Shown here piece after piece: positions 19,757-21,440 of a stretch of DNA of 64,000 nucleotides. Under the pieces are notes generated by a model. The model was given only the letters and a program-made list of their open reading frames with translations, did not search any database and was not told the origin of the DNA. Every line of letters begins with the position of its first letter. The first letter of the stretch is position 1. Both the position numbers and the translations under genes were made by a program. The stretch spans positions 960,001 to 1,024,000 of the forward strand of contig CM000436.1 of NCBI GenBank assembly GCA_000165345.1. The letters run 5' to 3'.

Positions 19757-21440
19757 TTAGATGTTAATATAAGAATCGTGTAAGTCAACTGCCTTGGAAT
19801 TAATCGAATTCAAGACGGATAGATATTTCTTTAGAGTTTTGAGACTTCTGTGGAAACATTGTTGTTGTTCTTTTTGGACATTTCTGTATAATAGAAGTGA
19901 AGTAAGCAAGGAAGCAGTAAGGAAAAGCCACACACTTATTTGATTTTCCGGAGTTAAGTCAAAAGAAGCAGCAGTACCGTTTTGTTGGATGGCTTCACTA
20001 TTAGAGAAAATGTTGAATCCAGAATAGTTACAAACCTGGAAAATAGCCATAATTAGCATTAGTAAAATGATGAATAGAGAAGATTTTTTATACAAATTTT
20101 TTTGTCGGTATAGATTTTCTTTATTTTTCTCAAGTTGCGTTTGTTTATATATAAGGCACTTATTATGCTCAAGTAAAGTTTGACAATCATTTAGTAGTGT
20201 AGCAATATCGTCCTGGACTTTCCTATCCACAACCTTTTCGATTTGGTCAACAACTTCCAAGATTCTGTTTAGAGTGGGGAGGCCATTACCTACTTGAGAT
20301 AATTTGTCCGGTGCATGTGATTTACCAGATTTAGTTCGAACATTAGTTATATTCTGATTTTCTGAATTTGAAAACGACTCTCCTAAAGATTGAAGGGTGT
20401 TTAAGGTCAAATAGGTTCCGTCCTTTGCACCTGCAATATATATGGGGATTAAATCAAAACCATGCTTGATTGCAATGCTGGAGCTAAGATTCTGGGTGAC
20501 TTGGCATATTACTTTAATTCTATCTTCCTCTGTAGGAATTTCATCAATCTTTGTTAATAGAAAACTTGTTTTGCGAGGAGCATTTTGTGCAATATATTTC
20601 GCAAAACTTAAAAGCCTTTTACTAAGAGCTTGTCCTGAAGGGTCAATACAAATCAAAACCAAGTCACACAAAGACATTGCAATATCTCTAATTACATTAT
20701 CAATATCAAAAGAATATATTGAATCGCCATCTAATAATCCTGGAGTGTCAATAAAATTAATACTTTGCAACCTTCCTTGATTAGAAGGGAAAGTTTTAAC
20801 AGACAAACTTGGAAGTAGAGTTGGGTTCCTCTCCACAACTTCTCTGAGCTCTGGTAAAATCATTAAAGCTGTTTCACCGCCAATTTCATTAACTTGTTTA
20901 CCTGAAACCACAAATGAGATTCCACAAGTTTCTATAGCCATTCCTGTCTTTTGTATATTTTCTTGCAACAGCCAATTAATCAATGTGCTTTTTCCCGCAG
21001 AAACATTTCCAATTATCATTACAGTAGCCTTCCTTCCCAATTTGGAGACCTTTAAGTTTAATGCTCTGCTTATTGAATATAGGCCTAACCCATCATCATT
21101 ATTCTCAAGCTCTTCTTCATATCCTTCCATTTCATCTTCATATTGATTTATAAATCTATCCAAATTGCGGCTTTTACCTCCTTTTCTTCCCATACCATGT
21201 ACTCTTCCAACTTTATATCCATTGTACAAGCCATAAATCTAAAAAAAAAAAGCAAATGTAAATTAATTTTAAAGTTCATAATATCTCATTAACCTGGATA
21301 CAACATCTCTCCAAAGCTAATGATGGTAATATTAACAACAATATTTTCAAACATACCTCATCCAGTATAGATGCATTCAAATTATTACGCTGCTCATTAG
21401 GCTTTAATGCCAGCAAAGATGGTTTTACTTTATCTTGCAT
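19757..21440 (-). CDS. membrane-anchored P-loop GTPase (septin/AIG1/dynamin-like G motifs), 2 exons (21357..21440, 19757..21238), about 521 aa
   Basis: G1 GNVSAGKSTLINWLL, G3 FIDTPGLLDGDS and G4 LLTKIDEI are present. A coiled coil is followed by two C-terminal transmembrane segments. The track ORF starts at TTG. An upstream exon ATG...GATGAG|GTATGT joins in frame through TTTTTTTTTTAG|ATTTATGGC. Confidence 0.55.

Follow-up and report, generated by a model that had tools for sequence, protein, structure and literature searches.

What is the putative membrane GTPase encoded on the minus strand near one third of the window, that is, of the whole 64,000-nucleotide stretch of Cryptosporidium parvum DNA analysed here, and where does its gene begin? 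Our preferred answer, to which we give a probability of roughly 0.6, is a two-exon gene whose 521-residue product is an integral-membrane NTPase from the dynamin superfamily, EHD-type but devoid of an EH domain and carrying a pair of transmembrane (TM) helices in the bacterial style. Its fold would be closest to that of the EHD membrane-remodelling ATPases.

Gene structure

The mechanical list of open reading frames (ORFs) gives a frame at 19757..21229 (-) that begins with TTG, a start codon to which an earlier note on this DNA had drawn attention. When spliced, the locus is a two-exon gene with an in-frame coding sequence and a 521-amino-acid product (Table 1). The note had proposed an 84-nt first exon with a GTATGT donor, joined in frame to position 21238, and all of this is borne out; only the acceptor needs a small correction, its T run counting 11 bases instead of ten. 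The intron lies at the same codon, in phase 0, in four Cryptosporidium species, where it measures 118, 119, 73 and 59 nt. GT and AG bound every one of the four introns, no length is a multiple of three, and an in-frame stop occurs in three of them. We take the splice to be real because its phase-0 position and GT-AG ends are common to the four species and because a conserved motif, ILxEIxxLY, spans the junction.

Exon 1 is therefore real, but it is not new. Described earlier as missed, it is already part of the current annotations of C. parvum, C. hominis, C. meleagridis and C. tyzzeri, and GenBank contains an identical 521-aa spliced product for C. parvum (QOY40159.1 and others). It is also kept in C. 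ubiquitum, C. felis, C. canis, C. ryanae and C. serpentis. Only the ORF track and a 2004 model of 478 aa, named "GTPase, 2 transmembrane domain near C", omit it.

Table 1. Features of the C. parvum gene and its product (positions in the window)
Feature	Residues	Position	Strand	Remarks
Exon 1	1-28	21357..21440	-	28 codons, 84 nt, MQDKVKPSLLALKPNEQRNNLNASILDE; first half of conserved N-terminal helix
Intron		21239..21356	-	118 nt, phase 0, GTATGT...T11AG
Exon 2	29-521	19757..21238	-	includes stop codon at 19757-19759
Dynamin-superfamily (EHD-type) G domain	96-314	20381..21037	-	
G1 / P-loop	105-112	20987..21010	-	GNVSAGKS
Probable switch-I (G2) threonine	132	20927..20929	-	T132 in IETCG motif
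G3	192-195	20738..20749	-	DTPG
G4	257-260	20543..20554	-	TKID
Low-complexity disordered insert	315-350	20273..20380	-	between G domain and stalk; pLDDT < 50
Stalk helix	354-413	20084..20263	-	continuous with TM segment 1
TM segment 1	414-433	20024..20083	-	hydropathy peak 2.24
Loop between TM segments	434-460	19943..20023	-	pLDDT low; predicted non-cytosolic side
TM segment 2	461-479	19886..19942	-	hydropathy 1.60; model helix 458-487
Conserved C-terminal cytosolic region	480-521	19760..19885	-	amphipathic helix 494-520

Assignment to the dynamin superfamily

The protein matches the Pfam Dynamin_N profile with 36.9 bits (cut-off 27) over profile positions 1-167 of 168, and so do the seven relatives tested surpass it, the lowest score among them being 27.3 bits. 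Against PDB sequences, the family profile finds EHD2 (2e-13, 53 bits) and EHD4 (1e-9), followed by a Campylobacter dynamin-like protein (4.5e-4) and MFN1 (9e-3). AF2 models reach pLDDT values of 72.7 and 81.1. EHD4 and EHD2 are the best matches in sequence and in structure, the similarity extending over G domain and helical domain alike; mitofusin-2 is the second-best structural match, MFN2 and Fzo1 together holding the second to fourth places. The protein displays features of the superfamily, namely a large G domain, G1, G3 and G4 motifs with a switch-I threonine, and a predicted helical stalk or bundle built from both sides of the G domain, and its G and helical domains have the EHD-type fold. 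The succession of G domain, helical region, two TM segments and tail, in which the earlier note had recognised a membrane-anchored remodelling GTPase, is the architecture of such dynamin relatives and agrees with the rank of mitofusin-2. The Pfam scan has no EH, EF-hand, GBP or RHD3 match at E <= 1, the C-terminus consisting of two TM segments and a helix, nor any match to EHD_N, the EHD helical domain or Fzo_mitofusin. Neither atlastin nor Sey1p is among the 50-60 best fold matches listed.

Could the protein instead be a membrane-anchored GTPase of the septin, paraseptin or AIG1/GIMAP kind, as its G motifs had suggested at first sight? Toc34, which belongs to the septin-like class of TRAFAC GTPases, is among the PDB sequence matches of the profile, and so are yeast septins (E = 4e-4 to 2e-3, with no single stretch significant alone). 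A Pfam check, which the earlier note had recommended, places Dynamin_N above its threshold and gives weak matches for Septin (E = 0.0055) and AIG1 (E = 0.1), both below threshold. With the best structural matches lying elsewhere, in EHD4, EHD2 and MFN2, membership of the septin or AIG1 families is refuted and this origin is most improbable. We consider just as improbable a ribosome-associated or translation GTPase akin to Era, EngA or LepA, which is what members of the family would be according to database names such as '50S ribosome-binding GTPase' and 'LepA like TRAFAC class GTPase'. The NCBIfam Era model scores only 37.5 against a cut-off of 237, EngA 27.5 against 307 and YlqF 18 against 208, and the Pfam scan contains none of the accessory domains (KH, a second G domain, LepA_C). 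These names, like the 'EH domain-containing protein 1/3/4' given to fish and chytrid members, are misleading; they derive from generic domain matches.

Conservation of the nucleotide-binding motifs

The G1, G3 and G4 motifs pointed out earlier are all present (Table 1). Across 56 family members, residues G105, S108, G110, K111 and S112 of G1 and D192, P194 and G195 of G3 are invariant, while K258 and D260 of G4 are kept in at least 90%. The IETCG stretch aligns with EPTTD, the switch I of EHD2; in an alignment of 13 sequences E131 is invariant and T132 nearly so, and E131 is retained in at least 90% of the 56-sequence alignment. G4 takes the forms SKAD, TKAD and TKID in the family. The residue following its aspartate is E in the C. 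parvum protein and mostly T or E in its relatives. The disordered insert after the G domain is long only in Cryptosporidium among the aligned sequences; Plasmodium, chromerid-like, fish and bacterial sequences are gapped there, or nearly so.

Membrane anchor and topology

The predicted order of elements is an N-terminal helix (residues 14-34, coded across the splice junction), the EHD-type G domain, a stalk helix running into the first TM segment, a loop, the second TM segment and a C-terminal helix. In the AF2 model residues 354-433 form one helix with pLDDT 90-97, closely preceded by N352, which is invariant in 56 members. A coiled coil had been proposed after the G domain; we reject it for the stalk, where a long helix is predicted and where the heptad periodicity of residues 351-412 is not above chance, the observed value being reached in 328 of 2000 shuffles.

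Hydrophobic segments were defined by a Kyte-Doolittle mean of at least 1.6 over 19 residues. In the whole protein, only residues 409-436 (peak 2.24) and 461-479 (1.60) qualify. At least two such segments follow the G domain in 69 of 77 full-length relatives, and exactly two in 52. Both C-terminal TM segments are thus found where the earlier note had placed them, but they are not closely spaced: about 27-34 residues separate them in C. parvum, and the median loop of the family is 35 aa. The C. parvum loop is free of K and R and has three acidic residues. In 53 relatives, K+R amount to 0.087 per residue for the loop and to 0.286 and 0.240 for its two flanks, and 49 of the 53 follow the positive-inside pattern. 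This charge distribution predicts that both ends of the protein are cytosolic and that the loop lies on the lumenal or outer side.

What had been taken for a short basic tail is a conserved region of 42 residues (family median 49) with a net charge of +4 and a confidently predicted helix (pLDDT 84-95, hydrophobic moment up to 0.57); the family shares a RAxxLxxxY motif there. Counts of aligned residues suggest that the N- and C-terminal helices pack in one bundle.

Distribution and bacterial relatives

The protein had been said to fit no standard apicomplexan family, but clear orthologues occur in Plasmodium and across the eukaryotes. Members were found in Plasmodium, Chromera, Vitrella, Digyalum, Aphanomyces, Cantina, Tetraselmis, Clastostelium, Hemimastix, Pigoraptor, Hartaetosiga, Chytriomyces and teleosts. 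Judged by sequence similarity, the family is widespread and pan-eukaryotic, with representatives in apicomplexans, chromerids, oomycetes, a green alga, an amoebozoan, Hemimastix, a choanoflagellate, chytrids and teleosts. An exhaustive profile search and cluster look-ups revealed this spread; a word-indexed search added only a few Plasmodium clusters. The zebrafish member is si:ch211-11k18.4, with about 84% identity across teleosts, and a search with the fish protein gives teleosts only among the matches listed. The Plasmodium orthologue is labelled 'conserved protein, unknown function'. The literature searched under the various database names of the family contained no functional study, and for si:ch211-11k18.4 a single expression study.

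The nearest sequence relatives of the eukaryotic family are bacterial EHD-like proteins with two TM segments, mostly from Desulfobacterales and Oligoflexus/Bdellovibrionota genomes. The family profile scores 68-90 bits on them, and hhalign aligns the two groups with a probability of 99.7% (E = 4.7e-26). The bacterial profile in turn reaches 133 bits on EHD2, against 53 bits for the eukaryotic one. Schaffer, Iyer, Burroughs and Aravind (2020, PMC7016017) described EHD and sarcalumenin relatives in bacteria that carry two TM helices at the C-terminus. Identification of the bacterial relatives with NCBIfam slr1306_fam was rejected: the C. parvum protein scores 14 bits, and P0020, P0022 and P0025 have no match at 1e-3. 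The bacterial gene neighbourhoods at two loci provided no functional hint, the adjoining ORFs being on the opposite strand or separated by gaps.

Proposed mechanism and possible roles

How might such a protein work? By analogy with its relatives, we infer that it remodels or tethers membranes by nucleotide hydrolysis. The N-terminal helix, the G domain and the long stalk helix would lie on the cytosolic side, the stalk passing straight into the first TM helix; a loop of about 27 residues would face the lumen or the outside, and the second TM helix would return the chain so that the conserved C-terminal helix comes back to the cytosolic helical domain. Nucleotide binding may then bring about dimerisation or oligomerisation of G domains between anchored molecules, as in EHD, mitofusin and atlastin, and a movement of the helical domain coupled to hydrolysis could tether, shape or fuse the membrane bearing the hairpin. 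The target would most likely be an endomembrane, for instance the ER or the nuclear envelope. An enzymatic activity is to be expected, with GTP or ATP as the presumed substrate, and its outcome might be fusion, tethering or scaffolding.

Two more precise roles can be weighed against each other. In the one that we regard as somewhat less improbable, though still unlikely, the protein would be an ATP-driven oligomeric scaffold that stabilises or severs membrane tubules, such as endosomal, Golgi or plasma-membrane invaginations, the TM pair replacing the lipid-binding tip of the helical domain of EHDs. The rank of EHD4 and EHD2 as top matches over the G and helical domains speaks for it, and so does the resemblance of SKAD and TKAD to NKAD, the G4 of EHDs, together with SKADM in a few members. 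Against it, the Met that is tied to adenine preference in EHD2 follows the G4 aspartate in just 2 of 77 members. The lack of EH, EHD_N and EHD helical-domain matches also weakens this role, as does the permanent membrane anchor, which is typical of fusion-type rather than scission-type dynamin relatives.

In the other, the protein would be a functional analogue of mitofusin, tethering or fusing the outer membrane of a mitosome, mitochondrion or other organelle in lineages devoid of mitofusins. The shared architecture (G domain, helices, two TM segments, C-terminal helix) and the structural matches to MFN2 and Fzo1 are consistent with this role, which nevertheless seems unlikely to us. The Pfam scan has no Fzo_mitofusin match. 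The family is also retained in teleosts and chytrids, which have mitofusin/Fzo1, and in Cantina, which has a reduced mitochondrion-related organelle. Cryptosporidium, too, has such a reduced organelle (PMC9796589). In favour of the role, Plasmodium and most protists reportedly lack mitofusins (PMC6871780), and the family is present in many such lineages; against it, no mitochondrial fusion has been seen in Plasmodium (PMC6871780).

Whatever its exact role, an EHD-type engine on a bacterial-style two-TM anchor, present from apicomplexan parasites to zebrafish, is a testable candidate for an unassigned membrane-remodelling step. To our knowledge, few classes of membrane-anchored dynamin relatives, which fuse and shape organelles, have been recognised. 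Tentatively, the family could be a further such class, so far unrecognised, on a par with atlastin/Sey1, mitofusin/Fzo and OPA1/Mgm1, already present in the last eukaryotic common ancestor, descending directly from the bacterial two-TM EHD-like proteins and performing a tethering, fusion or shaping step of its own, possibly the organelle fusion thought to be missing in mitofusin-less protists. Such a class may have been overlooked, since the latest phylogeny of the superfamily among those consulted purposely omitted the sarcalumenin branch and 'highly divergent dynamin-like GTPases' (PMC11789081). The question is relevant to parasites, the Plasmodium orthologue being without an assigned function and the reviews consulted reporting no mitofusins in this phylum.

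Comparison with known systems

EHD1-4 and RME-1 share the fold of the preferred reading, but identity to EHDs is only about 16%, and the C. parvum protein has neither a C-terminal EH domain nor an EHD_N or EHD helical-domain signature. EHDs use ATP and scaffold or sever membranes without fusing them. They are peripheral proteins, whereas the two strong hydrophobic segments of the C. parvum protein argue for integral insertion. Mitofusin and Fzo1 differ by their size (740-860 aa against about 520), their Fzo_mitofusin domain and their long HR1/HR2 helical domain 2, and the family profile gives MFN1 no more than 17.9 bits. The hairpins of mitofusin and atlastin are tight, whereas the loop of the C. 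parvum family spans about 27-35 residues.

With atlastin, Sey1p and RHD3 the protein has in common the order of cytosolic G domain, helical bundle, two TM segments and amphipathic C-terminal helix; the G domain of atlastin is, however, GBP-type and its TM segments are closely spaced. Teleosts have mitofusins of their own. A survey of ER-shaping factors, which mentions Cryptosporidium, reports atlastin or Sey1p in every eukaryote sampled (PMC9804665). These two facts together make a simple 'replacement fusogen' role unlikely, and should Cryptosporidium possess Sey1p, that enzyme would probably take care of homotypic ER fusion.

Sarcalumenin lies in the lumen, has a signal peptide and binds Ca2+ through an acidic region. 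In the C. parvum protein, by contrast, the N-terminus lacks a hydrophobic segment and is predicted from the charge pattern to face the cytosol; the few acidic residues clustered at 60-77 are not shared by the family. Sarcalumenin is nonetheless assigned to the EHD-related branch of the superfamily (PMC7016017), which is also the branch proposed here for the C. parvum protein.

The bacterial two-TM proteins offer a parallel of the same architecture, with a G domain of EHD type followed by a helical region and a C-terminal TM pair in 450-500 aa. Identity is about 19% in full-length alignment and 28-30% in local BLASTP; the tail after the second TM segment is longer in the bacterial proteins, and a RVYGxLxWNL motif shared by bacteria and EHDs reads IKVMCQxTQNL in the eukaryotic family. 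Being eukaryotic, the C. parvum protein is a homologue of the bacterial group with the same architecture, not a member of it, and the family looks like a eukaryotic form that has retained the architecture of a bacterial ancestor of EHD and sarcalumenin.

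An EHD-type G domain with two transmembrane segments

On sequence grounds, the GTPase gene (19757-21440, minus strand, two exons) encodes an EHD-type NTPase integral to the membrane, one of a family widespread among eukaryotes. The observation made in the earlier note is confirmed with small corrections, and its interpretation was partly right. Its G1, G3 and G4 motifs lie where it had placed them. The Pfam search that it proposed gave three overlapping G-domain matches above threshold: MMR_HSR1, Dynamin_N (over the full profile length) and GTP_EFTU. The septin- or AIG1-like character it had suggested was not borne out: Septin matched only at the P-loop, with 16.5 bits, and AIG1 gave 12.3 bits, both below threshold. 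NCBIfam ribosome-GTPase models scored far under their own cut-offs.

Against PDB sequences, the protein alone best matched EHD2 and EHD4. A 13-sequence family profile gave EHD2 (2e-13) and EHD4 (1e-9), followed by a Campylobacter dynamin-like protein (4.5e-4) and MFN1 (9e-3). Pfam detected no EH domain in the window protein, and no Pfam model covers the C-terminal half of this protein or of seven relatives.

We obtained two AlphaFold2 models, which agree: one of the C. tyzzeri protein (98% identical; 13 sequences; pLDDT 72.7) and one of the exact window protein (56 sequences; pLDDT 81.1, pTM 0.74). After the EHDs, the fold matches were MFN2 (20.4 and 21.3), Fzo1, IniA, OPA1, SynDLP and Campylobacter DLP, while septins (10.9-12.4) and GIMAP7 (11.1-11.6) scored at the level of generic small G domains; Foldseek left this picture unchanged. 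The EHD4 match spans 314 residues against about 220 for the G domain and must therefore take in helices of the helical domain. With an EHD-type G domain, a helical domain, two transmembrane (TM) segments and MFN2 among the top folds, the protein is built like the dynamin relatives that remodel membranes, as first proposed.

Features of the GTPase gene, its product and the neighbouring genes
Feature	Residues	Window coordinates	Strand	Basis
Exon 1		21357-21440	-	spliced gene model
Exon 2		19757-21238	-	spliced gene model
N-terminal helix	14-34			window-protein model
Disordered acidic linker	between N-terminal helix and G domain			window-protein model
G domain	~96-314			window-protein model
Disordered Ser/Asn-rich insert between G domain and stalk	315-350	20273-20380	-	window-protein model and alignment
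Single continuous helix, final 20 residues TM1	354-433			window-protein model
TM1-TM2 loop, low confidence	434-460			window-protein model
TM2 helix	458-487			window-protein model
C-terminal helix	494-520			window-protein model
Downstream 244-aa ORF		18636-19370	-	ORF
eIF2B-like gene		21958-23460	+	ORF

Nowhere in the protein but at the two hydrophobic segments noticed earlier does the Kyte-Doolittle window mean reach 1.6. The supposed coiled coil fared less well: heptad periodicity of the helical region is not significant, and this region is therefore better read as part of an EHD-like helical domain. Of 77 relatives of full length, 69 carry two or more hydrophobic segments beyond the G domain, and in 52 the number is exactly two; the median loop is 35 residues long and the median tail 49. 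In 53 two-segment relatives, the density of K+R drops from 0.286 ahead of TM1 to 0.087 in the loop and rises again to 0.240 beyond TM2 (background 0.118), and the flanks are more positive than the loop in 49 of them. The positive-inside rule thus predicts a cytosolic G domain and C-terminal helix, with the loop toward the lumen or outside. Among the aligned sequences the Ser/Asn-rich insert is long only in Cryptosporidium, being gapped or nearly so in Plasmodium, fish and bacterial ones. In the C. ryanae model (P0008, 652 aa), about 150 residues are also inserted N-terminally; they may be genuine or reflect a misannotation, for instance an intron left in place.

Gene model and genomic context

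In this window of Cryptosporidium parvum DNA (30% G+C), the mechanical ORF list holds a minus-strand ORF from 21229 to 19757, with TTG as its start, and an upstream ORF of 54 codons with an ATG at 21440. Taking out a 118-nt intron (GTATGT...T11AG) joins the two exons into an in-frame CDS of 521 codons. The TTG start and the in-frame upstream exon with its GTATGT donor thus stand as first described, as does the T-run and AG of the acceptor, with 11 T rather than 10.

For C. serpentis, C. felis and C. ubiquitum, we worked out the exon-intron structure of the orthologous locus against each species' own protein. All four species have a single phase-0 GT-AG intron directly after the ILDE/ILEE codons; its lengths (118, 59, 73 and 119 nt) are never multiples of three, and three of the four introns contain an in-frame stop. 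The motif ILxEIxxLY, which crosses the junction, is kept in Cryptosporidium, Plasmodium and remoter eukaryotes in our alignment, and its region is a confident helix in both structure models. On this comparative evidence we consider the splice real. Exon 1 was not missed, however, and is no new discovery: it is already annotated. A 521-aa protein identical to the spliced product is deposited in GenBank for C. parvum (QOY40159.1, WKS79655.1, KAL5367136.1, WRK34157.1), which identifies the species of the window; matching 521-aa models are also on record for C. hominis, C. meleagridis and C. tyzzeri, and only older models (EAK89546.1 / XP_627285.1, 478 aa) start at Met44. The name of that 2004-era entry was already 'LepA like TRAFAC class GTpase, 2 transmembrane domain near C'.

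The ORF directly downstream has no Pfam match; its product is hydrophobic at the N-terminus, contains many cysteines and has a further hydrophobic segment at the C-terminus. Syntenic counterparts are called in C. ubiquitum (244 aa) and C. serpentis (221 aa), and none in C. felis. Upstream, across a 517-bp intergenic region, lies a divergently transcribed gene. Its 500-aa product contains an NTP_transferase domain and a left-handed beta-helix domain of the eIF2B type, and is probably a gamma/epsilon-like subunit of eIF2B. The order MutS, this divergent gene, GTPase, small ORF, MFS transporter is syntenic in three further Cryptosporidium species.

Eukaryotic and bacterial relatives

When 1.84 billion cluster representatives were searched exhaustively with the profile, 2961 proteins matched at E <= 1e-3, and 248 reached E <= 1e-30. 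Many are 440-520 aa long and span the profile from end to end. Family members occur in Plasmodium species ('conserved Plasmodium protein, unknown function'), Chromera, Vitrella, the gregarine-like Digyalum, the oomycete Aphanomyces, the stramenopile Cantina, the green alga Tetraselmis, the amoebozoan Clastostelium, Hemimastix, Pigoraptor, the choanoflagellate Hartaetosiga, chytrid fungi and teleost fish (si:ch211-11k18.4). Between zebrafish and a percomorph representative, identity of the fish protein is about 84%; against the C. parvum protein it is 32% across 311 residues. So broad a spread suggests that the family may have arisen close to the last eukaryotic common ancestor and been lost many times since. 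A partial protein (P0019, 301 aa) with both hydrophobic segments comes from an assembly of the mite Leptotrombidium deliense, as a true arthropod gene or contamination.

Relatives are named '50S ribosome-binding GTPase', 'LepA like TRAFAC class GTPase' or 'EH domain-containing protein 1/3/4' (the last in Oryzias, Salmo, Channa and Chytriomyces). Among the so-named relatives tested, none carries an EH domain or the accessory domains of ribosome GTPases; these names are misleading and stem from generic domain matches.

The next-nearest proteins are bacterial, of 450-500 aa, with the same layout of G domain and two TM segments. Their gene occupies at least 559 loci in species-representative genomes, mostly of Desulfobacterales, where it is very common, Oligoflexus or Bdellovibrionota (in MAGs of the latter two). 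At both loci inspected it looks stand-alone, without a partner dynamin-like gene. These bacterial proteins score 68-90 bits with the eukaryotic family profile (profile-profile probability 99.7%), and their own profile scores 133 bits with EHD2, so this group lies between EHD and the eukaryotic family. Bacterial EHD/sarcalumenin relatives with two C-terminal TM helices were described by Schaffer et al. (PMC7016017), the accessible text of which does not mention the eukaryotic two-TM family. A 2025 superfamily phylogeny of Mx proteins (PMC11789081) explicitly left out the sarcalumenin branch and other 'highly divergent dynamin-like GTPases', and a 2026 EHD review does not mention such two-TM proteins. 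What is left of interest is the gene's membership of this widespread eukaryotic family, for which our literature search found no functional study and whose database names mislead.

Possible mode of action

Across 56 diverse members, the residues of the P-loop, DxPG and [ST]KxD motifs show no or almost no variation, which argues for a conserved enzymatic function; the EHD-type G domain is conserved and apparently catalytically competent. By analogy with EHD, mitofusin, atlastin and bacterial dynamin-like proteins, membrane-anchored molecules would dimerise or oligomerise through their G domains in a nucleotide-dependent way, a step coupled to motion of the helical domain, and would thereby tether, shape or fuse the membrane that holds them. 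A hydropathy scan found no N-terminal targeting-like hydrophobic segment in the window protein. Hosts of the family include organisms with reduced mitochondrion-related organelles, and both plastid-bearing and plastid-free organisms; this presence irrespective of organelle type favours a general endomembrane site.

Is the outcome fusion or scaffolding? A permanent membrane anchor is a hallmark of fusion and tethering dynamin relatives (atlastin/Sey1, mitofusin). EHD, the closest fold, is an ATP-driven scaffold. Teleosts have mitofusins, which speaks against a simple replacement role. So does the presence of atlastin or Sey1p in every eukaryote sampled, as reported by a published survey (PMC9804665). 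The lack of mitofusins in Plasmodium and most protists, as reviewed (PMC6871780), keeps an organelle-fusion role conceivable. Since the permanent anchor points to the fusion and tethering enzymes and the closest fold to the EHD scaffold, we retain both outcomes as rivals.
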